From a virus (lineage: Duplodnaviria > Heunggongvirae > Uroviricota > Caudoviricetes), in IMG/VR virus record IMGVR_UViG_2695420589_000017: DNA of 9,184 bases; one strand, 5' to 3'. Below are positions 1 through 9,184 of this stretch, piece after piece. The first letter of the stretch is position 1. Each line of letters begins with the position of its first letter. The translations under genes were made by a program, and so were the position numbers. The notes below the pieces were generated by a model that searched no databases, was not told the DNA's origin, and was given only the letters and a program-made list of their open reading frames with translations.

Positions 1-804
1 ATGCCGCTGGATAAATGCGAGCTACGCCACTGGCTGGCCTGTTTTGACCAGCTTGCTAAGCGTAATCCGGTATCAGCCGGCTTTTTGTTGCAGGTATGCA
101 AACAGGCGCTTAAGTACTGCCGTAAACGTCGCTACGCCGTCAGTAACGTTCTTGATGATATGGTCGTAGGTGATGTGGGAAAAAAAGCAGAAATAAGCGA
201 GCGAGTGCTAACAAACAAGGAGCTTGGCGAGCTACTCCGCGCACTGGATGAAAAAATTTTCCCGCCGTACTACAGCGCTTTAATTCGCCTTCTGATTGTC
301 TTCGGATGCCGTACCACTGAGCTAAGACGCTCCGAGGTTCGGGAATGGGATTTTAAAGAAATGCTCTGGACTGTGCCGAAAGAACACAGCAAAACGAAGG
401 TAGCAATATTCAGGCCAATACCGGAAGCGATCTTGCCGTTCGTCATGAAGCTGGTGGAGCAGAACAGGCACACGGGCTTATTGCTTGGAGAACTGAAAGG
501 GCAATCATCCGTAGCAGAGTACGGAAGAACGGCACACAGACGCATTAATCAAACCCCCTGGTCGTTGCACGACATCCGGCACACATTTACAACCATGCTG
601 AACGATTTAGGCGTGGATCCGCATATTGTCGAACAGCTTACTGCCCACCAGATGCCAGGAATGCAACGCGTCTATAACCACTCCCGTTATCTCGATGCAA
701 AGCGTGACGCTCTTAATCTATGGGTAGACCGTCTCGAGCTTCTCCAGAACAATGATGAAAAAATCGTTGTTATGACCCCGCGAATTTACCCCCAAAATTC
801 TTGA
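1..804 (+). CDS. int: Tyrosine recombinase / integrase, P4-like family, C-terminal 267 codons (5' end cut by window edge)
   Basis: Open frame from position 1 to TGA at 802-804. Translation carries tyrosine-recombinase catalytic-domain hallmarks (LHDIRHTFTTML = H-x-x-R box; RVYNHSRYLD = C-terminal Tyr region) and resembles P4-type integrases. Full-length members are about 400 aa or more, so the ATG at position 1 is most likely an internal Met. Confidence 0.85.
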   Translation: MPLDKCELRHWLACFDQLAKRNPVSAGFLLQVCKQALKYCRKRRYAVSNVLDDMVVGDVGKKAEISERVLTNKELGELLRALDEKIFPPYYSALIRLLIVFGCRTTELRRSEVREWDFKEMLWTVPKEHSKTKVAIFRPIPEAILPFVMKLVEQNRHTGLLLGELKGQSSVAEYGRTAHRRINQTPWSLHDIRHTFTTMLNDLGVDPHIVEQLTAHQMPGMQRVYNHSRYLDAKRDALNLWVDRLELLQNNDEKIVVMTPRIYPQNS

Positions 805-856
805 CAAATTACGGCTGTTTTTTCTTTAAGAGATTACAGCCGTGAATAGATCTTAG

Positions 857-882
857 AATATCGGGGAATATCTGCAAATATC
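857..882. repeat. Three AATATC direct repeats phased exactly 10 bp apart (857-862, 867-872, 877-882) in the int-alpA intergenic region; possible protein-binding sites
   Basis: Read directly: agAATATCggggAATATCtgcaAATATCttc. One-helical-turn spacing is typical of arrayed binding sites for a DNA-binding protein; function not established. Confidence 0.3.
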
Positions 883-1223
883 TTCTCTTTATATGTGTCA
901 ACTATCGAAAAAAATTGAAATGTCTTCTTCTGAGTTCTTATTCTCTGTTTCTTGATTGTTCCAACACCTGATGGTTTATCTATTTGTTTTTAATGAGGTA
1001 ATTCAGGTGACATGCCAAATGACGACATTTTTTGTTGCGTCGCTTAAAAACTCGTGACACGATTTTAAACACTAACGAGCTTCTACGAACCTTAGCGAAC
1101 AAAGCCTTTAGTATGGTTGTGTTTTTAATTTAAGAGGTGAAAAAGAATCTAAGTAATATCCGATCTCATATATCTACAGCTAAGAGAAAAGTTTATATAC
1201 GTAATTTTTATGTAGGTTTTTGT

Positions 1224-1433
1224 ATGCGTGAAATAAATGAAGATCGCGTAATCCGTGAGGATGAATGTCGTAAGTTAACTGGAGTGTGTCGCACTACACG
1301 CTACGAACTGGAGAAAAAAGGGAGCTTTCCGTCTCGCCGTAATCTTGGTGGGCGTTCTGTAGGTTGGCTGCTGTCCGAGGTTATGGAATGGGTTAAAAGC
1401 CGGGATCGCATTAATTCAGGTAAGGCAGCGTAA
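1224..1433 (+). CDS. alpA: AlpA-family phage transcriptional regulator (MerR-like HTH; excisionase/activator type)
   Basis: 69-aa product MREINEDRVIREDECRKLTGVCRTTRYELEKKGSFPSRRNLGGRSVGWLLSEVMEWVKSRDRI has the size and HTH-like pattern of AlpA proteins found beside P4-type integrases. ATG 1224 is preceded by AGG at 1214-1216; the longer GTG-1137 start lacks an RBS (the GTG lies inside GAGGTG). Confidence 0.75.
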   Translation: MREINEDRVIREDECRKLTGVCRTTRYELEKKGSFPSRRNLGGRSVGWLLSEVMEWVKSRDRINSGKAA

Positions 1434-1462
1434 AGGGGAGCATATGACATATAAAACAAAGA

Positions 1463-1478
1463 CGACCGGGGGCGGTCG
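1463..1478 (-). terminator. Candidate rho-independent terminator for the minus-strand unit (hairpin CGACCG-GGGG-CGGTCG followed on the minus strand by a U-rich tract)
   Basis: 6-bp GC stem with 4-nt loop at 1463-1478. The minus-strand transcript continues into UCUUUGUUUUAUAU (reverse complement of 1447-1460). No T-run follows on the plus strand, so it is not a good terminator for alpA. Confidence 0.35.
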
Positions 1479-1547
1479 CCAATGGATACACACTAAACTT
1501 GAACGCATCACCAACAATGCCACATTTGCGGCTGGTGGGCAATGTGA

Positions 1548-1721
1548 TCAGTCAGATTTTGTTCGTTCCAAGGTTTGCAACGAGAGCTTTTTCCTGTGCT
1601 CTTTAAGGAATTTCTCAAGAGCAAAAGCACATGGCGCGAATCTTTCTGATTCATGCTCTATCTTTCTGCGCCGTCTTTTCCGTGCCGGTGATAATGTTTT
1701 GGTCAATTCTTTATCGGTCAT
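1548..1721 (-). CDS. Hypothetical small basic protein (57 aa; MTDKELTKTLSPARKRRRRKIEHESERF...)
   Basis: Minus-strand ORF downstream of the 101-aa gene. The internal ATG (minus-strand coordinate 1721) is preceded by AGGA with about 7-nt spacing; the longer ATG at 1736 is an alternative. Lys/Arg-rich product and a plausible terminator 70 nt downstream. Short, so coding status is uncertain. Confidence 0.35.
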   Translation of the reverse strand: MTDKELTKTLSPARKRRRRKIEHESERFAPCAFALEKFLKEHRKKLSLQTLERTKSD

Positions 1722-1778
1722 TGTGTTGTCCTGCATAGCAATGCGCCGTAATACCTTACACCACGGCGCTGATGGTGA

Positions 1779-2084
1779 TTACTCTGGTTCTTTGGTCTTG
1801 CGACGCTGGAGTTCTTCGCGTGCAACGGTGACAAGCTGCCCGATTTCTTCCGCTGCTTTGATGCCGATTTGTTCGACCTTAGCCAGGGCATCCAGTGACG
1901 ACACAAGGGGATTTTCTCCGCTGCCTTCTGCTTGGCGGCGGGCTATTTCTCCGCGCATGGCGGTTACGATAAATCCGGCATTGCTTTCGCCGTCCAGCTT
2001 AACGGATTCCATCCCTTGCATAACATCTAGTGGGACTCTGACAGTTGTCAGTTGTGATTTTGCGTTTTTGTTAGCCGTTGCCAT
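1779..2084 (-). CDS. Hypothetical 101-aa protein, putative ribbon-helix-helix (Arc/CopG-like) transcriptional regulator
   Basis: ATG at minus 2084 preceded by AGGAG (reverse complement of 2093-2097) with 8-nt spacing. N-terminal segment TTVRVPLDVMQGMESVKLDGESNAGFIVTAMRGEI fits a beta-strand/helix/helix pattern typical of RHH repressors (inference from pattern only). Transcribed divergently from the early operon, next to a palindromic operator. Confidence 0.6.
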   Translation of the reverse strand: MATANKNAKSQLTTVRVPLDVMQGMESVKLDGESNAGFIVTAMRGEIARRQAEGSGENPLVSSLDALAKVEQIGIKAAEEIGQLVTVAREELQRRKTKEPE

Positions 2085-2145
2085 TTCTGAAACTCCTAAT
2101 CATCGGTGTGTTTCAGTATACACAAAAAAAGAAATACAAAAAGCC

Positions 2146-2183
2146 TTGACGTGTGTTTCATGCGCTCATAACATGAAACACAC
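2146..2183 (+). promoter_or_regulatory. Putative sigma70 early promoter (-35 TTGACG 2146-2151, 17-bp spacer, -10 TAACAT 2169-2174) overlapped by a perfect 12-bp inverted repeat operator GTGTGTTTCATG-N9-CATGAAACACAC (2151-2162 / 2172-2183)
   Basis: Read directly from sequence. The palindrome arms are exact reverse complements. A third direct copy of the half-site GTGTGTTTCA lies at 2106-2115 on the side of the leftward gene. Confidence 0.45.
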
Positions 2184-2281
2184 CGAAAGGATTGTTGAAA
2201 TACAAAGAGCAACGCCCCGCAGTGCCGGAAACACATACGGGGCGTCTAACCACCAACGATAACGAGAGTATCGAGGCAGCT

Positions 2282-2485
2282 ATGAGAAATCATACCATAC
2301 ACCCGCAAGGGCGGGACTCGTACAACCTGAATAAATACATCTGGCGTTTTATCGCCCTGAGCACGGCACAACCGCGCGTGATTACCATTGAGGCCAGCAG
2401 CGAACAGGAAGCACGCCAGCAATCCCCGGCTGGCTGCGTGATGGTATTCGCCGCCCGTATTCGTCAGGGGGGGTGCCATGCCTGA
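2282..2485 (+). CDS. Icd/Kil-like small protein (host cell-division inhibitor-like, P4 family), 67 aa
   Basis: ATG 2282 with GAGG at 2273-2276 (5-nt spacing). Product MRNHTIHPQGRDSYNLNKYIWRFIALSTAQPRVITIEASSEQEARQQSPAGCVMVFAARIRQGG matches my recollection of the Icd-like pattern (F.A....PRVI.IEA...EAR....FAAR..QGG) found as first gene of P4-type early operons; not verified by alignment. The upstream TTG-2192 extension has no usable RBS spacing. Confidence 0.55.
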   Translation: MRNHTIHPQGRDSYNLNKYIWRFIALSTAQPRVITIEASSEQEARQQSPAGCVMVFAARIRQGGCHA

Positions 2486-2798
2486 TATGTCAAATTACCA
2501 GTACCTGATTAATCCGCATTTTAACTGTGAGCATGATATTGCTAAAAAGGTTTATTCCGCTGCGGATGGGGCTACTGACAATATATCAATGGCTGTTGCG
2601 TCAATTGGTAGCCTGATGTGGCATGCGTCAGAAAATGAGGACTATGACGAAAAGGCCATGCGCATTGATATGGGTAATATCGGTTTGTTACTGGCAATGC
2701 TTGGACATTTTGATATTTCGTTACGGTGCACCATTGAAAATGCCACAGATGCATTAAATGCTATAAAGAAAGCGAATACTGATTCAAATCGGGGATAA
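2478..2798 (+). CDS. Hypothetical protein, 106 aa, no recognisable motif
   Basis: ATG 2478 overlaps the stop of the upstream gene (2483-2485) and follows a G-rich RBS-like tract. Acidic, compact, in operon with the replication gene. No motif I can assign. Confidence 0.6.
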   Translation: MPDMSNYQYLINPHFNCEHDIAKKVYSAADGATDNISMAVASIGSLMWHASENEDYDEKAMRIDMGNIGLLLAMLGHFDISLRCTIENATDALNAIKKANTDSNRG

Positions 2799-2804
2799 AT
2801 AATC

Positions 2805-3104
2805 ATGAGAACGTATTTATCTGGCTTGACTGCCAGCGGTTATGCACACCCCCAAATTATCCCCGGCGCTATTTATCTGGATAAGAACGGTAACAGAGTA
2901 ACGGTAAAAGAACTGATGTTTGACCGTGTGTATTTTATCCGTGATGGCTATTCATTTCTTAGTTCGCTGAACGTGGAGATCTTTATTAGCAGATTCAGTC
3001 GGGAAATCCCGCTTTCCAGAAATAACCATGTGTCATGTATGGATGTTGATAAAAAACTACAGGAACTAAAAAACATGATTGCCGCGTGGAGAGAGCAGAA
3101 ATGA
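2805..3104 (+). CDS. Hypothetical protein, 99 aa, no recognisable motif
   Basis: ATG 2805 is 6 nt after the upstream stop; its own stop (3102-3104) overlaps the ATG of the helicase gene (ATGA), indicating translational coupling. Confidence 0.6.
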   Translation: MRTYLSGLTASGYAHPQIIPGAIYLDKNGNRVTVKELMFDRVYFIRDGYSFLSSLNVEIFISRFSREIPLSRNNHVSCMDVDKKLQELKNMIAAWREQK

Positions 3105-4891
3105 AAAAAGCGCCAAATTTAAAACACCAGCCGCGTGACAAAATGACGGAAGTCATCATTTTTGCGGGTAGTGATGCGTGGGCACATGCGAAACAGTGGC
3201 AGGAACAGGACGGGCGACTGGCTGGCGATAACGTGCCACCTGTCTGGCTTGGAGAGCAACAACTTGCCGAACTGGACAACCTGCAAATCGTACCGGACGG
3301 ACGCTATCGCGTGCGTCTCTATCAGGCGGGGTTATTGCGTCCGGGGCTTGTTAATACCATCGGGCAGAAACTGGCAGTGGCAGGTGTCAGGGATGCTGAT
3401 TATTACCCTGAAGGAATGCACAGCCAGAAACGGGAGAACTGGCGCGAATATCTGGAACGTGAACGGGCAGAGCAGGCGGAAAAGAAAAAGGTAGTTGAAC
3501 TGCCTGTAAAGAAAAAAGAGCGGGTAAAAGACGATAACGCTTCATCACTGGCGCTTAACCAGATGGGAGCAAGTCAACGCGGCGAAGTTCTCCTGGCACA
3601 TTATGGCGGTGAACTGGCGATTCATGCTGACTCTGACACTGTTCACCATTACAACGGCGTTGTATGGGAGCCAGTACAGGATAAAGAATTACAGCGAGCT
3701 ATGGCACAGATTTTCATTGATGCGGAGATCAGCTATTCGCAGAACGCCATTAAATCGGCGGTCGATACCATGAAGTTAAGTTTGCCTGTAATGGGGAATA
3801 CAGCCCGTAACCTGATTGGATTCAGTAACGGGGTATTTGATACCAGAACAGGTAATTTTCGGGAGCATAACAAAAACGACTGGTTGTTAATTGCCAGTGA
3901 ATTACCTTTCAGCCCACCAGCAGAGGGGGAAACGCTGGCAACACATGCGCCGAATTTCTGGAAGTGGTTACGCCGTTCGGTGGCTGAGAATGACCGCAAG
4001 GCGGATCGCGTACTGGCTGTATTATTCATGGTGCTGGCGAACCGGTACGACTGGCAGTTATTCATTGAGGTAACAGGTCCAGGGGGAAGTGGTAAAAGCG
4101 TGATGGCGGAGATTTGCACCATGCTGGCGGGTAAGGCCAACACAGTATCGGCAAGCATGAAGGCGCTGGAAGATGCAAGGGAACGCGCGTTAGTGGTTGG
4201 CTTTTCGCTGATTATCATGCCGGATATGACCCGCTACGCTGGTGATGGGGCAGGGATTAAGGCCATTACAGGCGGTGACAAGGTGGCAATTGACCCGAAA
4301 CACAAAGCCCCCTACTCAACGCGTATTCCGGCAGTAGTGCTGGCGGTTAACAATAACGCCATGTCATTCAGTGACCGCAGCGGGGGGATCTCACGTCGTC
4401 GGGTGATATTCAATTTTTCGGAAGTTGTACCGGAGAACGAACGCGACCCCATGCTGGCAGAAAAAATAGAAGGAGAGCTGGCGGTTGTGATTCGCCACCT
4501 GCTTACTCGTTTTTCTGACCAGGACGAAGCTAAACGCCTGCTGTATGAGCAGCAGAAATCAGAAGAAGCTCTGGTGATAAAACGCGAGGGCGATTCGCTG
4601 GTGGACTTCTGCGGCTATCTCATGTCGTCGGTAATGTGTGATGGTCTGTTAGTGGGTAATGCCGAAATTATTCCGTTCAGTCCGCGCAGGTATCTTTATC
4701 ACGCCTATCTGGCATATATGAGGGCACACGGATTCGGTAAACCTGTAACACTGACGCGCTTCGGTAAAGATATGCCGGGGGCAATGGCGGAATATGGCAG
4801 GGAGTATATGAAACGGAAAACGAAGCACGGTTTGCGTTCAAATGTGACCCTGACAGAGGATTCAGAAGACTGGATGCCATCATGTGCATAG
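3101..4891 (+). CDS. Replication protein: P4 alpha-like / D5-family SF3 helicase with origin-binding C-terminus (phage/plasmid primase P4-family C-terminal domain); N-terminal primase domain not evident
   Basis: 596-aa frame; ATG 3101 with GGAGAGAG 5 nt upstream. Walker A motif EVTGPGGSGKSV followed by a hydrophobic stretch ending in D (LIIMPDM). Overall size and layout match P4-family helicase-type replication proteins. Iterons lie immediately downstream. Confidence 0.85.
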   Translation: MKKAPNLKHQPRDKMTEVIIFAGSDAWAHAKQWQEQDGRLAGDNVPPVWLGEQQLAELDNLQIVPDGRYRVRLYQAGLLRPGLVNTIGQKLAVAGVRDADYYPEGMHSQKRENWREYLERERAEQAEKKKVVELPVKKKERVKDDNASSLALNQMGASQRGEVLLAHYGGELAIHADSDTVHHYNGVVWEPVQDKELQRAMAQIFIDAEISYSQNAIKSAVDTMKLSLPVMGNTARNLIGFSNGVFDTRTGNFREHNKNDWLLIASELPFSPPAEGETLATHAPNFWKWLRRSVAENDRKADRVLAVLFMVLANRYDWQLFIEVTGPGGSGKSVMAEICTMLAGKANTVSASMKALEDARERALVVGFSLIIMPDMTRYAGDGAGIKAITGGDKVAIDPKHKAPYSTRIPAVVLAVNNNAMSFSDRSGGISRRRVIFNFSEVVPENERDPMLAEKIEGELAVVIRHLLTRFSDQDEAKRLLYEQQKSEEALVIKREGDSLVDFCGYLMSSVMCDGLLVGNAEIIPFSPRRYLYHAYLAYMRAHGFGKPVTLTRFGKDMPGAMAEYGREYMKRKTKHGLRSNVTLTEDSEDWMPSCA

Positions 4892-4929
4892 GTCACAAAT
4901 GACGATGGAAAAAATTAAACTTATGGAAT

Positions 4930-5154
4930 AACTGTTCACCACTGTTCACCCTGCAATAAATGTCTTTTATATCAGTATATTATAGGGTGAACAGTTATTT
5001 ATGAACTGTTCACCAAACTATTCACTGTTCACCTTTTTGATTCTTTATTGAGCTTTAAGGGTGAACAGTGGTGAACAGTTGGTGAATAGTTTTTGTGAAA
5101 CTGTTAACCCATTAACATCATGAATAAAAAGGGAAAATTGCAAAAGGTGAACAG
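4930..5154. repeat. Iteron array / putative replication origin (ori or crr-like): at least 8 perfect copies of CTGTTCACC / GGTGAACAG in both orientations plus degenerate copies, with an AT-rich segment at 4956-4985
   Basis: Perfect 9-mers at 4932-4940, 4942-4950, 5006-5014, 5025-5033 (forward) and 4986-4994, 5060-5068, 5070-5078, 5146-5154 (reverse); degenerate copies at 5081-5089 and 5101-5109. The core contains TGTTCACC, which I recall as the type I iteron bound by P4 alpha protein. Confidence 0.75.
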
Positions 5155-5205
5155 GTGAAGGGTTAAAATGCAAAAATTTTATTTTATTGCTGTGAGGTAA
5201 AGCCT

Positions 5206-5451
5206 GTGACAACGAAGCACGCCAAAAAACCACAATCTCACGCCCTTGATTTGACAGAACACTGGCTGAGGGTGGCGATAAAAATCATCGACCGCAACGC
5301 CGGGGAAGGATACGCGAAAGCACATCCCGAACTGATAAGCGCATTCATGACCACGACGGCGGCAAACTTTGCCACGCTGACAGAACGGGAGATTGCCGAA
5401 GCGGAACAGGTGACAACCATCAACGTTAAAACCGGAGAGCAGACAGCATGA
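5206..5451 (+). CDS. Hypothetical protein, 81 aa (GTG start)
   Basis: GTG 5206 with GAGG at 5194-5197 (8-nt spacing). Stop overlaps the ATG of the downstream SSB-like gene (ATGA at 5448-5451). No recognisable motif. Confidence 0.5.
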   Translation: MTTKHAKKPQSHALDLTEHWLRVAIKIIDRNAGEGYAKAHPELISAFMTTTAANFATLTEREIAEAEQVTTINVKTGEQTA

Positions 5452-5870
5452 CAGCACAGATAGCGGCTTACGGGCGGCTGGTGGCTGACCCGCAGTTAAA
5501 GACCACCAGCAAGGGTACGCAAATGACGATGGCGAGTATGGCGGTTCCCCTGCCGTGCAGCCAGGCAGATGACGGAACGGCGACGATATGGTTATCCGTC
5601 CTGGCGTTTGGCAGACAGGCTGACGCACTGGCAAAGCACCAGAAAGGCGAGCTGGTGAGCGTGGCGGGTAACATGCAGGTAAGCCAGTGGACAGGCCAGA
5701 ACGGAGAAACGCGGCAGGGCTGGCAGGTTATCGCAGACAGTGTAATCAGTGCCAGAACGGCGCGACCGGGCGGTAAAAAAGGCCAACAGGGGCAGGCCAC
5801 TGATGCACTGAACAGGGCCAAACAACAGGCGGGGAATGATGATCCGTACGGGGATAACATACCGTTTTAA
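5448..5870 (+). CDS. ssb: Single-stranded DNA-binding protein (SSB)-like, 140 aa, with conserved acidic C-terminal tip ...DDPYGDNIPF
   Basis: N-terminal OB-fold region parallels E. coli SSB in layout (GRLVADPQLKTTSKG...; WLSVLAFGRQADALAKHQKGELVSVAGNMQVSQWTGQNGETRQGWQV), a Gly/Gln-rich linker, and a C-terminus ending in IPF like the SSB DDDIPF tip. GGAGAG RBS 10 nt upstream. Confidence 0.8.
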   Translation: MTAQIAAYGRLVADPQLKTTSKGTQMTMASMAVPLPCSQADDGTATIWLSVLAFGRQADALAKHQKGELVSVAGNMQVSQWTGQNGETRQGWQVIADSVISARTARPGGKKGQQGQATDALNRAKQQAGNDDPYGDNIPF

Positions 5871-5885
5871 GCAACGAGTGACAGA

Positions 5886-5908
5886 AGCCGGAGCAATCCG
5901 GCTTTTTT
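5886..5908 (+). terminator. Rho-independent terminator after the SSB-like gene
   Basis: Stem AGCCGGA / TCCGGCT (5886-5892 / 5897-5903) with loop GCAA, followed by a run of six T (5903-5908). Confidence 0.65.
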
Positions 5909-5919
5909 GTAGGTACTCC

Positions 5920-6214
5920 NNNNNNNNNNNNNNNNNNNNNNNNNNNNNNNNNNNNNNNNNNNNNNNNNNNNNNNNNNNNNNNNNNNNNNNNNNNNNNNNN
6001 NNNNNNNNNNNNNNNNNNNNNNNNNNNNNNNNNNNNNNNNNNNNNNNNNNNNNNNNNNNNNNNNNNNNNNNNNNNNNNNNNNNNNNNNNNNNNNNNNNNN
6101 NNNNNNNNNNNNNNNNNNNNNNNNNNNNNNNNNNNNNNNNNNNNNNNNNNNNNNNNNNNNNNNNNNNNNNNNNNNNNNNNNNNNNNNNNNNNNNNNNNNN
6201 NNNNNNNNNNNNNN
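5920..6214. other. Run of 295 N (unresolved or masked sequence; true length unknown)
   Basis: Directly visible; no flanking repeat. Confidence 1.
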
Positions 6215-6331
6215 CCCGATGGTGCCACCGGAGGCGCTTTGTCAGCGACAAAGGATACTGCCACTACCGAAATGATGAGTCTTAATTGTGCTGGCGTGGC
6301 AATAATTAGTCAATTCTTTTGCTGGTATGAC

Positions 6332-6361
6332 AAAAATCAGAAAACACATAATCTGATTTTT
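6332..6361. promoter_or_regulatory. Perfect 10-bp inverted repeat AAAAATCAGA-N10-TCTGATTTTT upstream of the morphogenesis operon; candidate operator or activator site
   Basis: Arms at 6332-6341 and 6352-6361 are exact reverse complements. AT-rich stem makes it a poor intrinsic terminator, so a protein-binding site is more likely. Confidence 0.3.
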
Positions 6362-6434
6362 AGATAGAAAATGATTTATTTACCAGTTTTATCGATCAAT
6401 AATGATGCCCGTTAATCATAACGGAGGCAGACTT

Positions 6435-6629
6435 ATGCCAGAGAACAACAGCAGAAAACCGGATAAAAGTGCAACAGTGCACATAGACGCCGGAACTATG
6501 GAGAAGCTCGAACGCTATCAGCAGTTCATTAAAAGTCATCACCCTGGAATGCCAGTACCCACGAAAGGGCAGATTGCGAGAAGCGCGGTTGAATACTGGT
6601 ACAGGGCAACGTTAGGAGCCTGGCTATGA
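6435..6629 (+). CDS. Hypothetical small protein, 64 aa, first gene of the head operon
   Basis: ATG 6435 with GGAGG at 6423-6427 (7-nt spacing); alternative in-frame ATGs at 6402 and 6405. Stop overlaps the ATG of the protease-capsid gene (ATGA). Product MPENNSRKPDKSATVHIDAGTMEKLERYQQFIKSHHPG...; function unknown. Confidence 0.5.
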   Translation: MPENNSRKPDKSATVHIDAGTMEKLERYQQFIKSHHPGMPVPTKGQIARSAVEYWYRATLGAWL

Positions 6630-8506
6630 AAACATGGTTTTCCATTAAGGCTATGGCTGATGTTGTACATGTACGCATTTATGACGAGATCGGCGGGTAC
6701 GGTGTAAAAGCATCGGCACTTACTGACGAGATCAACGCGTGCGGTAATGTGCCTGAAATCCATCTTCGCATCCATTCACCTGGTGGCGACATCTTTGAAG
6801 GGCTGGCTATCTATAACGCCCTGAAAAATCATCCGGCAAAGAAAATTGTACACATTGAAGGCATGGCGGCTTCTATGGCCTCGTTTATTGCCATGTGTGG
6901 CGATCACATCGTTATGCCTGAAAACGCGATGATGATGATACATGCCCCCCGTGGTGTTACTGCCGGAGTGTCGGGCGACGTTCGCCGCTTTGCTGACCTG
7001 ATGGACAAGCTGGGCGACACGATGGCGGAAACCTACGCCGGAAGAACGGGCAGGAGCAAACAGGAAATCACCGCCATGATGGAGGCGGAAACCTGGATGG
7101 ATGGCAATGAGTGTAAGGCTAATGGCTTCGCAGATGAGGTTATACCCGCGATTACAGCAATGGCCAGAATTGAATCAAAACGAATCGGAGATTTTTCGAA
7201 TATGCCGGAAAATATTAAAAGCATGATCAGCCAGAAAACTGGCAGCGGAGAACAGGAACGACTCAACGGGATACGTGAATTGTTTGGCACGTTCAATGGA
7301 AGATATAACGACCTGGCTATAAGTTGTCTTGCTGATTCAGGCTGTAGCGTTGAGGATGCACGCGAACGCCTTTTACTCACTATGGGTAAAGAATCGACAC
7401 CGACAAACAAAACCACCCCCGCAAATCTTTACTACGCGTACACGGATAACGGCAACATAACCGGCGATGCAATGCGTCAGGGGCTTAATGCGCGTCTGGG
7501 ACATGAACAGGCAGAACGCGGCAACCCTTACGCCATGATGAGCCTTTTCGATATGGCACAGGCATCATTAACCCATCGCGGCATAAGCACAGGCAGCTAC
7601 AGCACACGCTCGCAGATAGTAAACGCGGCATTCACCCACAGCAGCAGCGATTTTACTTATATCCTTGCTGGTGGTGCTGAAAAATCCGTGCTTGCCGGAT
7701 GGGAACACAGCGGCGAAACGTTCCGCCAGTGGACGAAAAAAGGTTCATTGTCAAACTTCCATGAGGCACGTCGTGTTGGCCTGAATGGCTTCTCTACATT
7801 AAACAAAGTGCCGGAAGGCGCGGAATATAAATACATCACCACCAGTGACCGTGGCGAACCAATCGCGCTGGCAACTTACGGAAATATTTTCAGCATTACC
7901 CGACAGGCGATTATTAACGATGACCTGAATCAGTTAACAGTTATCCCACAGGCAATGGGGCGAGCAGCCGCCAGAACGGTGGGTAATCTGGTTCATCTGG
8001 TGCTGACAGGAAACACAAAGCTTTCTGACGGTATACCGCTGTTCAGCAAAAAACACGGAAATGATATTGATAACGGAGTCAGCACTACAGGGCTTGGCAT
8101 TGCACGCCGTGCAATGCGCACACAGAGGGATGAAAACGGTGAGGTGCTGAATATTGTGCCAAAATTCCTTCTTGTTCCTGCGGCTCTGGAAGACAGAGCG
8201 TTGCAAATGGTTAACTCAACCACGCCTTTCGGTGCCGATACAAACAGTGGTTCATATAACCCGTACCACAAACAACTGGATATTATTGTCGATCCCCGCC
8301 TTGATGAAGTCAGTGATAAGCAATGGTACATGCTTTCAGCACAGGGAACGGACACAATTGAGGTGGCTTATCTTGACGGTAATGACGAGCCTTACCTTGA
8401 GCAGCAGGAGGGCTTTATTGTTGACGGTGTGGCCTGGAAGGTCCGCATTGATGCTGGCGTTGCTGCTCTGGATTATCGCGGAATGGTCAGAGCGATTTCT
8501 TCATGA
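6626..8506 (+). CDS. Prohead (ClpP-like, S14-type) protease fused to major capsid protein, 626 aa
   Basis: Single uninterrupted frame; AGGAG 7 nt upstream of ATG 6626. N-terminal ~190 aa carry ClpP-like protease signatures (IHSPGGDIFEGLAIYNAL; GMAASMASFIA serine context; MMMIHAP histidine context). The C-terminal ~350 aa are of major-capsid size; the capsid assignment rests on size, position and my recollection of protease/major capsid fusion proteins in enterobacterial prophages, not on alignment. Strong terminator follows. Confidence 0.8.
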   Translation: MKTWFSIKAMADVVHVRIYDEIGGYGVKASALTDEINACGNVPEIHLRIHSPGGDIFEGLAIYNALKNHPAKKIVHIEGMAASMASFIAMCGDHIVMPENAMMMIHAPRGVTAGVSGDVRRFADLMDKLGDTMAETYAGRTGRSKQEITAMMEAETWMDGNECKANGFADEVIPAITAMARIESKRIGDFSNMPENIKSMISQKTGSGEQERLNGIRELFGTFNGRYNDLAISCLADSGCSVEDARERLLLTMGKESTPTNKTTPANLYYAYTDNGNITGDAMRQGLNARLGHEQAERGNPYAMMSLFDMAQASLTHRGISTGSYSTRSQIVNAAFTHSSSDFTYILAGGAEKSVLAGWEHSGETFRQWTKKGSLSNFHEARRVGLNGFSTLNKVPEGAEYKYITTSDRGEPIALATYGNIFSITRQAIINDDLNQLTVIPQAMGRAAARTVGNLVHLVLTGNTKLSDGIPLFSKKHGNDIDNGVSTTGLGIARRAMRTQRDENGEVLNIVPKFLLVPAALEDRALQMVNSTTPFGADTNSGSYNPYHKQLDIIVDPRLDEVSDKQWYMLSAQGTDTIEVAYLDGNDEPYLEQQEGFIVDGVAWKVRIDAGVAALDYRGMVRAISS

Positions 8507-8510
8507 GAAC

Positions 8511-8535
8511 AAGGCGGCAGCAGCCGCCTTTTTTG
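8511..8535 (+). terminator. Rho-independent terminator after the capsid gene
   Basis: Stem GGCGGC / GCCGCC (8513-8518 / 8523-8528) with loop AGCA, flanked by AA and T-run TTTTTT (8529-8534). Confidence 0.7.
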
Positions 8536-8588
8536 CGGGTCCTCCTGGTGGGGGGGGCCTGTCCACGGGGCGGGTCGGCGCGGAAAAA

Positions 8589-8783
8589 AACGCATTTTTG
8601 TGGTTTTATCGTCATCATCATCATGTGTGTAACCTGTTGTTTTTANNNNNNNNNNNNNNNNNNNNNNNNNNNNNNNNNNNNNNNNNNNNNNNNNNNNNNN
8701 NNNNNNNNNNNNNNNNNNNNNNNNNNAACGCATTTTTGTGGTTTTATCGTCATCATCATCATGTGTGTAACCTGTTGTTTTTA
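8589..8783. repeat. Two identical 57-nt direct repeats (8589-8645 and 8727-8783) flanking an 81-nt N run
   Basis: AACGCATTTTTGTGGTTTTATCGTCATCATCATCATGTGTGTAACCTGTTGTTTTTA occurs identically on both sides of the N run; it contains a (CAT)4 tract. Confidence 0.9.
8646..8726. other. Run of 81 N (unresolved or masked sequence)
   Basis: Directly visible. Confidence 1.
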
Positions 8784-8902
8784 ATGTGGTTGATGCAAAA
8801 AAGATGATGATTGTGGTTAATTTTTGTTCGACATCTTTTAGCGTGACAGATTCTTTACAAAAAATCTGAGCTTGTTTTCTTAACCAGCGCGATGGGGGCA
8901 CA

Positions 8903-9184
8903 ATGACAGAAGCCGAAATACTGGGATTAATCCGCCGCGTCGCCGGAATCAGCCAGCAGGTTGACGAACAGGCCATGCAACCGGACAGCGTGACCGCTGA
9001 AAATTATGCGCGTGTGGTGGATGAGGTAATGCGCCGTGACGGTATTGAGCTTAACGGCGTGGATATGCGCAACATACGAACCAGAGTTCTTGAGTTGCTG
9101 GCATACCGTCGCCGTTCTCAACAACGGAGGGAGAGCGCGAAAAATACTTACCAGTGGAGGAAGCCGGAGCACTTACGGCGGTAA
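8903..9184 (+). CDS. Hypothetical protein, 93 aa
   Basis: ATG 8903 preceded by GGGGG (4-nt spacing); stop TAA at 9182-9184 at the window end. Arg-rich C-terminus. Separate transcription unit after the capsid terminator. No motif recognised. Confidence 0.5.
   Translation: MTEAEILGLIRRVAGISQQVDEQAMQPDSVTAENYARVVDEVMRRDGIELNGVDMRNIRTRVLELLAYRRRSQQRRESAKNTYQWRKPEHLRR

Follow-up and report, generated by a model that had tools for sequence, protein, structure and literature searches.

A protease-capsid fusion gene and a lambda-type cos site in an Escherichia coli phage satellite integrated between cspD/yljB and clpS

Phage-inducible chromosomal islands (PICIs) of Gram-negative bacteria carry, in their published classical organisation, an integrase gene, alpA, a primase gene, a replication origin and a capsid gene (PMC6092414; PMC10085698; PMC10111431). 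SatelliteFinder counts capsid morphogenesis among five core components of a PICI; in its scheme 'Type B' elements with four of the five are still counted as PICIs, and capsid-forming PICIs (cf-PICIs) are told apart by portal, head-tail adaptor, connector and the large terminase subunit, TerL (PMC10085698). Of 29 Gram-negative PICIs in a reference set, 21 have been reported to carry capsid genes, and islands with a CLP_protease gene have also been described (PMC10111431). Helper-dependent induction and transfer have been shown for EcCICFT073 and a few others (PMC6092414). EcCICFT073 lies at ycfD-phoQ, and two further islands, EcCIIHE3034 (NC_017628: 920272-930825, 10.5 kb) and EcCI18098 (10.8 kb), occupy cspD-clpS with the attachment (att) core ATGATAGTTAT (Fillol-Salom et al. 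2018, Table S1). Here we analysed a 9,184-nt stretch of DNA, IMG/VR virus record IMGVR_UViG_2695420589_000017 (the window), which proved, as originally predicted, to come from a phage satellite with a P4-related replication module (50% identity to P4 alpha) and a protease-capsid gene that P4 lacks. We hold with high confidence that it is a classical Gram-negative PICI of the E. coli 'EcCI' family, integrated at cspD/yljB-clpS and carrying a helper-type cos site, with no gene for an Rpp protein. It belongs to a known and already catalogued kind of element rather than to the capsid-forming islands, and it is not a new chimera.

Contigs with the island were gathered from many assemblies by exact-protein look-up of the protease-capsid fusion protein. 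In the locus labels used below, L016 is the source contig, L015 and L017 are gap-free sister assemblies, L003 is the island of strain YJ4, L004 is a relative embedded in an O121 prophage, L005 is LR881103.1 and L010 is EcCICFT073. The window corresponds with 0 mismatches to L016:3376-12559 (assembly GCA_001258955.1, contig CXDA01000046.1). The published 11-bp att core ATGATAGTTAT occurs at positions 2757 and 13097 of L016, which gives an island of 10351 bases (10.35 kb). The window covers 9184 of these (89%), and the original prediction that only about half the element was visible was therefore wrong. The att repeats lie 0.5-0.6 kb outside each end of the window, in the source contig and in six further assemblies, complete or draft. 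All that lies outside the window is the 5' portion of int and roughly 0.5 kb that is non-coding or holds a small unannotated open reading frame (ORF); host genes follow. In L001-L003 and L012-L017, cspD/yljB lies on one side of the island and clpS on the other (annotated flanks, gene calls), and no portal, terminase, connector, tail or lysis genes were found between the att sites or in the flanks of these loci. Among the window proteins there was no PHROG or Pfam match to portal, head-tail, tail or holin families. Extending the contig thus yielded the att repeats that the original prediction had pointed to as a check, and none of the terminase, portal and adaptor genes that it had named alongside them; no tRNA gene was found in the window, and the integration site, between cspD/yljB and clpS, is intergenic. 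A 17-bp repeat, AATGGTGTAGTTAATTT, was considered as att and dropped for ATGATAGTTAT, which also flanks the island, further out; the 17-bp sequence may itself be a repeat of the arm type or an inner one.

Thirteen genes in the window had family support, all of them rightward except two, and the PICI zones follow one another in the published order: integration, regulatory, replication and a short 'late' zone made up of orf75, the fusion gene, cos and orf93. The island has a terminal integrase gene (interrupted by a stop), AlpA beside int, a primase-replicase with an iteron origin 3' of its gene, and a late capsid gene. It also has att direct repeats, a lambda-type cos and a length of 10.35 kb, within the PICI range of about 10-20 kb, and no portal, connector, tail or holin gene. 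AlpA, the Icd-like first gene of the early operon, the alpha-like helicase, the TGTTCACC iterons and the protease-capsid gene, all named in the original prediction, were found in profile and motif searches where it had placed them.

Several points weigh against this classification. The island has four of the five PICI core components, lacking a gene for the small terminase subunit (TerS) or Rpp, and is therefore a 'Type B' PICI. Helper identity, induction and packaging are argued by analogy with EcCICFT073, an island with a lambda E/D capsid module and an Rpp gene. A portal, terminase or connector gene within the first of two runs of N in the window is excluded only via the gap-free sister assemblies L015 and L017. 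The cosB side of the O121 prophage around L004 differs from that of the embedded satellite cos, so the match between satellite and phage cos is not universal. Finally, the integrase gene is a pseudogene here, and this copy of the island may be decaying.

Homologues of ten window proteins, out of 13 compared, occur in EcCICFT073 as well as in EcCIIHE3034 (32-100% identity). Both islands are colinear with the window through int, alpA, a leftward YlcI/YnfO gene, an Icd-like gene, small ORFs, a DUF4222 gene and the primase gene. Colinearity continues through a small ORF, the gene for single-stranded DNA-binding protein (SSB), another small ORF and the capsid module; an Rpp/TerS-like gene follows in the two reference islands only, and then a gene for a 93-residue protein. 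EcCIIHE3034 and EcCI18098 are like the window island in their cspD-clpS site, in the att core ATGATAGTTAT and in size, and EcCIIHE3034 has the same gene order and a similar integrase (95% identical), AlpA (100%) and orf93 product (78%). It differs in having lambda E-type capsid, head-decoration and Nu1-like terS genes in place of orf75 and the fusion gene, and its Pri protein is only 47% identical to the corresponding protein of the window, Pri-Rep. EcCICFT073 resembles the window in its gene order, its two cos sites, an origin 3' of pri and a capsid homologue, with conserved Icd-like (94%), orf81 (88%) and orf93 (75%) products. Unlike the window island, it lies at ycfD-phoQ, carries a lambda E/D-type capsid module and encodes RppA, which retargets the helper TerS to a satellite-specific cosB, whereas the window has a phage-like cosB side and no Rpp.

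PICIs embedded in their helpers, and PICIs with CLP_protease among their late genes, have been described as well (Tommasini, Mageeney & Williams 2023), and they share the four-zone architecture of the window island. The O121 relative (L004, 3552-13208) has the same replication and late modules at 92-99% protein identity, but it lies within the terL gene of a lambdoid prophage and its integrase is 25% identical to that of the window island, which occupies a chromosomal site. Protein identities across the islands compared form a mosaic within one gene pool; from int through orf106, for instance, the window proteins are 99-100% identical to those of the YJ4 island. The classical organisation, together with the shared site and att core of EcCIIHE3034 and EcCI18098, contradicts the original idea of a novel chimera between P4 and a cf-PICI. 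Among 5426 complete E. coli genomes, 1969 matched some part of the window. The island is one more, probably immobilised, copy of a satellite family that is common across E. coli genomes. A megablast search of a phage collection returned a single partial match, to the primase gene of a cf-PICI-like record.

The fusion gene (6626-8506, +) encodes a 626-residue protein that joins a ClpP-like prohead protease, a scaffold and an HK97-fold major capsid protein (PF00574 and PF25209). Its score against NF045540 was 863 bits (cutoff, 475), and RefSeq already names it 'ClpP-like prohead protease/major capsid protein fusion protein'. The Ser (GMAASM) and His (MIHAP) motifs aligned to those of ClpP structures and are kept in both satellite and phage fusions. 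The ratio of non-synonymous to synonymous substitution rates (dN/dS) among satellite copies was 0.13-0.18. In the comparison with L002, dS rose from 0.04 in the protease domain through 0.26 in the linker to 0.78 in the capsid domain, and dN/dS stayed at 0.10-0.16 in each; this pattern indicates intragenic recombination with every domain constrained. The fusion gene is thus under purifying selection. It was matched in 207 of the 5426 complete E. coli genomes, nearly at full length in 143. The protein was 92-93% identical to its counterparts in L001, L002 and L004, 62% identical to that in L003 and 49-51% identical to the fusions of Stx (Shiga toxin) phages and mEp460-type phages, the closest phage homologue standing at 51%.

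We surveyed the genomic context of relatives of the fusion in a collection with one genome per species. All six full-length relatives with at least 57% identity lay in satellite contexts, each with an orf75 homologue upstream. At 51% identity or less, 41 of 42 loci had portal and/or terminase genes, and most also had tail genes; the one remaining was a truncated locus in which only downstream head and tail genes were visible. None of these 42 loci contained alpA, the primase gene or orf75. Portal references matched only the phage-context loci and the prophages around two embedded satellites (L020 and L087). The Kluyvera and Rahnella satellites are inserted into their helper's own fusion gene. 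The satellite fusions form a separate, constrained lineage, and therefore an old and maintained one rather than debris. The best explanation is that, in the fusion protein, satellites have long kept under selection a copy of their own of the helper's shell protein.

The gene before the fusion, orf75 (6402-6629, +; phrog_4934, E 1.3e-46), encodes 75 residues, or 64 from the second Met, and overlaps the start of the fusion gene. It was present upstream of all six satellite-borne fusions in other genera (L019-L022, L031 and L087) and of none of the 42 phage-borne ones. As it accompanies satellite fusions only, orf75 is a candidate functional partner of the fusion. Deleting capsid-module genes of EcCICFT073 leaves interference unrelieved, and that island is packaged in phage-sized heads (PMC6092414); our literature search found no function for the capsid genes of E. 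coli PICIs. One tentative suggestion, to which we give a rather low probability, is that orf75 and the fusion form a hijack module in islands without Rpp, the shell protein joining or replacing the helper capsid protein on the helper portal. If so, satellite-specific heads (smaller or chimeric) and helper interference would be expected, and the module would be a functional intermediate between classical PICIs and cf-PICIs, the Gram-negative counterpart of Ccm in SaPIbov5. SaPIbov5, a cos-type Staphylococcus aureus pathogenicity island (SaPI), bears this homologue of its helper's capsid protein (PMC8569155). It may be the closest functional analogy for a satellite that combines a helper cos with a capsid homologue, but it is Gram-positive and unrelated in sequence, and Ccm redirects capsid size and shape whereas EcCICFT073 heads are phage-sized. 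A conserved protease-capsid fusion beside a helper-type cos, with no Rpp, offers a clean system for studying the function of PICI capsid genes.

A main cos site was located at 8530-8864, in the intergenic segment that follows the fusion gene, by aligning it with the lambda cos junction and with the helper-prophage cos. It comprises a cosQ-like GGGTCCTCC at 8537-8545, a cosN of the form ACG/GGGCGGGTCGGC/GCGG at 8565-8583 and a cosB side extending to about 8864; the alignment to lambda predicts a 12-nt cohesive end at 8568-8579. A first cos-like site (5886-6214) follows ssb and falls nearly all within the first run of N; the hidden sequence, taken from L015 and L017, contains ACGGGGCGGGCGGTTCGCGG. 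There cosN is present, cosQ is altered and the cosB side is different. EcCICFT073 carries cos1 and cos2 (PMC6739421), and the two-cos layout of the window parallels them. Only 13 of 50,697 phage records matched the cos segment. Nine of the 13 did so at 85-87.5% identity over about 200 nt that included the cosB side, namely Stx2_95, Stx2_112808, Stx2_12E129, VT1-Sakai and others, and in Stx2_95 the matching segment has the lysis genes on one side and terS on the other. The phages that match the cos are the same phages that carry the closest phage homologue of the fusion (51%). Among complete E. coli genomes, 199 matched the cos segment.

Because both the cos and the fusion match Stx phages of the VT1-Sakai/Stx2_95 type, such phages are likely helpers. 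The main cos resembles theirs across the cosB side as well, and helper TerS is therefore probably used directly, with no need for Rpp; judged on these alignments, the island is probably packaged by the terminase of such helpers. The cos site is accordingly predicted to function in helper packaging. A tblastn search with RppA, Nu1 and the EcCIIHE3034, L003 and helper TerS proteins found no Rpp, Nu1, TerS or DUF1441 homologue (best E, 0.16). The 144-residue EcCICFT073 protein (L010:10660-11094) matched RppC (6HLK) with E 5e-31, which confirmed it as RppA. The satellite cos of L004 (12669-12927) shares cosQ and cosN with the cos of the surrounding prophage (approximately 1600-1861), and the embedding O121 prophage may not be the phage that packages this satellite. 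If Stx phages were confirmed as helpers, the satellite family would be tied to the spread and interference biology of Shiga-toxin phages.

By analogy with EcCICFT073, a lambdoid helper phage would switch the island on, Int and AlpA would excise it and Pri-Rep would replicate it from the iteron origin. The helper terminase would then cut the concatemers at the lambda-type cos and fill particles made with helper proteins. The sequence suggests that helper TerS would serve directly in this step, without Rpp, as it does for P4 and for cos-type SaPIs, and that the fusion protein would most likely enter or perturb helper head assembly.

The replication zone opens with a DUF4222 gene (2805-3104, +; PF13973, E 1.6e-16), which is kept just upstream of the replication gene and has the same place in EcCICFT073 and EcCIIHE3034. 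The Pri-Rep gene follows (3086-4891, +) and may start at the ATG at 3101. Its product matched PF08706 (D5_N), PF19263 (DUF5906), PF03288 (Pox_D5) and phrog_864 (E 2e-188), and it combines D5_N, a superfamily 3 helicase and a P4-alpha-type origin-binding domain. Residues 150-600 were 50% identical to P4 alpha (E 8.5e-152, tblastn against the P4 genome), and residues 1-150 gave no match to the alpha primase domain in that search. Against TIGR01613 the protein scored 96 bits (cutoff, 108.7), and its C-terminus matched the solved origin-binding domain of P4 alpha (PDB 1KA8, E 2.3e-24). Identity was 47-48% to the Pri proteins of EcCICFT073 and EcCIIHE3034 and 97-99% to those of L001-L004.

The replication origin (4933-5153) consists of TGTTCACC iterons, eight exact and two with one mismatch, arranged in two opposed sets; they stand directly 3' of the replication gene and occur in both orientations. 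With up to one mismatch allowed, the whole window contained 16 matches, where 7.5 ± 2.5 were expected; none of 200 shuffles reached that number. The same motif is annotated in P4 as 'ori type 1 repeat'. Origins of Gram-negative PICIs have been described as lying 3' of the rep gene, with an AT-rich region between two iteron sets (PMC6092414), and the placement and layout of the window origin agree with that description. An Rfam match to the plant microRNA family MIR5380 at 4991-5104 (32 bits, gathering score 150) was set aside as a spurious product of the palindromic iteron array. Beyond the origin lie orf81 (5206-5451, +; phrog_1231, E 4.7e-49), which encodes a hypothetical protein of 81 residues that is conserved before ssb and is 88% identical to its EcCICFT073 homologue, and ssb itself (5448-5870, +; PF00436, E 3.9e-16; phrog_44).

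The original prediction favoured a capsid-forming island, that is, a cf-PICI that builds its own small capsids, packages itself and borrows only helper tails. A complete and selectively maintained protease-scaffold-capsid polyprotein in the island would suit such an element, as would the 75% identity of its primase to that of vB_KppS-Ant, a record with capsid, portal, connector and terminase genes. The cf-PICI EcCIEDL933 (Alqurainy et al.; bioRxiv 10.1101/2022.09.08.507074) also has an int-alpA-rep backbone of the same type and both capsid and protease functions. However, cf-PICIs carry portal, head-tail connector, HNH, TerS and TerL genes in about 15 kb, and the full island has none of these, nor a head-tail adaptor. 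At 10.35 kb it is well short of the 15.4 kb of the prototype EcCIEDL933, and it carries a helper cos rather than a packaging system of its own. With att repeats, cspD/yljB and clpS in the extended flanks, and no portal, terminase or connector, we regard a cf-PICI as extremely unlikely. The broken integrase, the BRO-N remnant in relatives, and the phage-type capsid gene and cos could instead be taken as marks of a decayed lambdoid prophage that was never a satellite. Against this, many genomes share the att-bounded architecture of 10-11 kb, which occupies several sites and extends to other genera, and the island has its own replicon and SSB, with late genes under purifying selection. Its capsid lineage stands apart from every phage copy (at most 51% identity), and model members of the family are satellites that have been mobilised experimentally (PMC6092414). 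A prophage remnant is accordingly very unlikely.

A further reading, that of a P4-like satellite whose sid-delta-psu operon has been swapped for a capsid gene, draws on the replication module, with helicase and origin-binding parts 50% identical to alpha and an identical iteron, TGTTCACC. It draws also on an AlpA 45% identical to P4 ORF88, on the arm-type DNA-binding domain of the integrase, and on a shared dependence on helper cos and terminase. The literature already records int, AlpA and primase as common to P4 and PICIs, so the presence of int and AlpA does not discriminate between the families. The P4 model of SatelliteFinder, by which we defined P4-like elements, comprises int, Psu, Delta, Sid, AlpA, epsilon and alpha. 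P4 itself differs from the window in having sid-delta-psu, epsilon and a CI RNA, in contrast to a lambda-type cos with a capsid gene. In tblastn (E 1e-3) the window proteins matched none of Sid, Delta, Psu, epsilon and the P4 cI ORF, there were no such PHROG matches, and no C4/isrK-type CI RNA was detected with Rfam (E up to 0.1). The 'P4-type integrase' of the original prediction does share the arm-type domain with P4 Int, but the two are only 24% identical, and the alpha primase domain is unmatched. The cos is lambda-type and matches that of Stx phages, although no search for a P2-type cos was made, and gene order follows PICIs and not P4. We therefore give this reading very little probability, and the classification of the island as an EcCI-family PICI stands.

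In the integration zone of this PICI, the first ORF of the window (1-804, +; PF00589, E 5.8e-18; phrog_1) encodes the C-terminal catalytic fragment of a tyrosine integrase. It is only a fragment because codon 118 of the integrase frame of L016, a Glu codon in intact relatives, is an in-frame stop (TYWL*SYAKE). This stop lies at L016 3292-3294, 82 nt upstream of window position 1, and divides the frame into ORFs of 117 and 267 residues. The N-terminal fragment of 117 residues, which bears Arm-DNA-bind_3, lies outside the window; the 267 residues within it are 100% identical to the integrase of the YJ4 cspD-clpS island. Unless a sequencing error created this premature stop, the copy in the source genome has probably lost the ability to excise itself. 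The AlpA-family regulator or excisionase (1224-1433, +; PF05930, E 3.8e-16; phrog_2790) is 100% identical to that of EcCIIHE3034.

The regulatory zone contains the two leftward genes. A small gene for 62 residues (1548-1736, -; phrog_21027, E 1.9e-14) has homologues in EcCICFT073 and EcCIIHE3034 that are 85% identical. Divergent from the early operon is a gene for a 101-residue YlcI/YnfO-family protein (1779-2084, -; NF041551, 63 bits against a cutoff of 30; phrog_6522, E 1e-63), a candidate regulator. The interval at 2103-2186 is a putative divergent control region, with a 13-nt perfect inverted repeat, TCGGTGTGTTTCA/TGAAACACACCGA, between the arms of which lies a sigma-70-like promoter (2146-2174, TTGACG-17-TAACAT) that points to the Icd-like gene. 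The latter is the first gene of the rightward operon (2282-2485, +; NF033153, 69.6 bits against a cutoff of 25; phrog_6196, E 4.6e-43), and its product has a 94% identical homologue in EcCICFT073. It is followed by orf106, for a hypothetical protein of 106 residues (2478-2798, +; phrog_15327, E 2e-71) with no match in Pfam, NCBIfam or PADLOC. A search of ten small ORFs with PADLOC found no defence cargo. An ORF of 272 residues at 1444-2262 (+) was also considered; it had no family match and runs antisense to the two family-supported genes, and it is probably not a gene. A BRO-N pseudogene remnant is annotated in RefSeq relatives at the 5' end of this ORF.

The two runs of N lie at 5920-6214 and 8646-8726, and both coincide with a repeat of about 100 bp, later recognised as cos. 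The second gap is spurious, as its flanks overlap in gap-free relatives; the resulting assembly artefact (8646-8783), which the main cos span takes in, consists of 81 N and, at 8727-8783, an exact duplicate of the 57 nt at 8589-8645. The true length of the first gap is 199 bp, and its sequence was supplied by the gap-free L015 and L017, which are 100% identical to the window over 6215-9184 and 99% identical over 2444-5919. The runs of N, the integrase truncation and the lambda-type cos sites were all absent from the original prediction.

The last gene of the window, orf93 (8903-9184, +; phrog_1561, E 2.9e-53), encodes 93 residues and likewise comes last among the genes of the E. coli PICIs that we compared, with 75-90% identity in EcCICFT073, EcCIIHE3034 and L001-L004. 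It lies about 200 bp downstream of cos, where Nu1/TerS sits in phages. We considered its product as an Rpp or TerS mimic and rejected this, as it had no PDB sequence match to RppC. The AlphaFold2 model was poor (pLDDT 63, pTM 0.40), a Foldseek search of the PDB gave nothing below E 2, and a weak PDB match to QmcA (E 0.009) was dismissed as fortuitous. The nearest database homologue of the orf93 product (99%) bears the label 'MAG TPA_asm: Bacteriophage sp.'.

In the interval from cos to orf93, the YJ4 island encodes a DUF1441 protein of 161 residues (L003, 14672-15157), which shares 47% identity with the DUF1441 TerS of helper type over the N-terminal 76 residues of the latter. We rejected it as a known Rpp, as it had no PDB match and did not resemble RppA-C; for terminases of the DUF1441 type it may act as an Rpp analogue of an uncharacterised kind.

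The element vB_KppS-Ant (L005, LR881103.1, 16.5 kb), deposited as a phage, has int, primase, capsid, portal, connector, terS and terL genes. One tape measure ORF is its sole tail-related annotation, and lysis genes are unannotated; it looks like a capsid-forming PICI from an induced lysate. The late cassette of the window island (small ORF, fusion, cos and orf93) occurs with three unrelated replication proteins, the P4-alpha-like one among them, and at no fewer than three integration sites, a prophage terL gene included. It accompanies a DUF927-type replication protein in L014 (6178-8301) and a RepA-family helicase in L096 (2139-3548), the latter at a third site, next to yejO.

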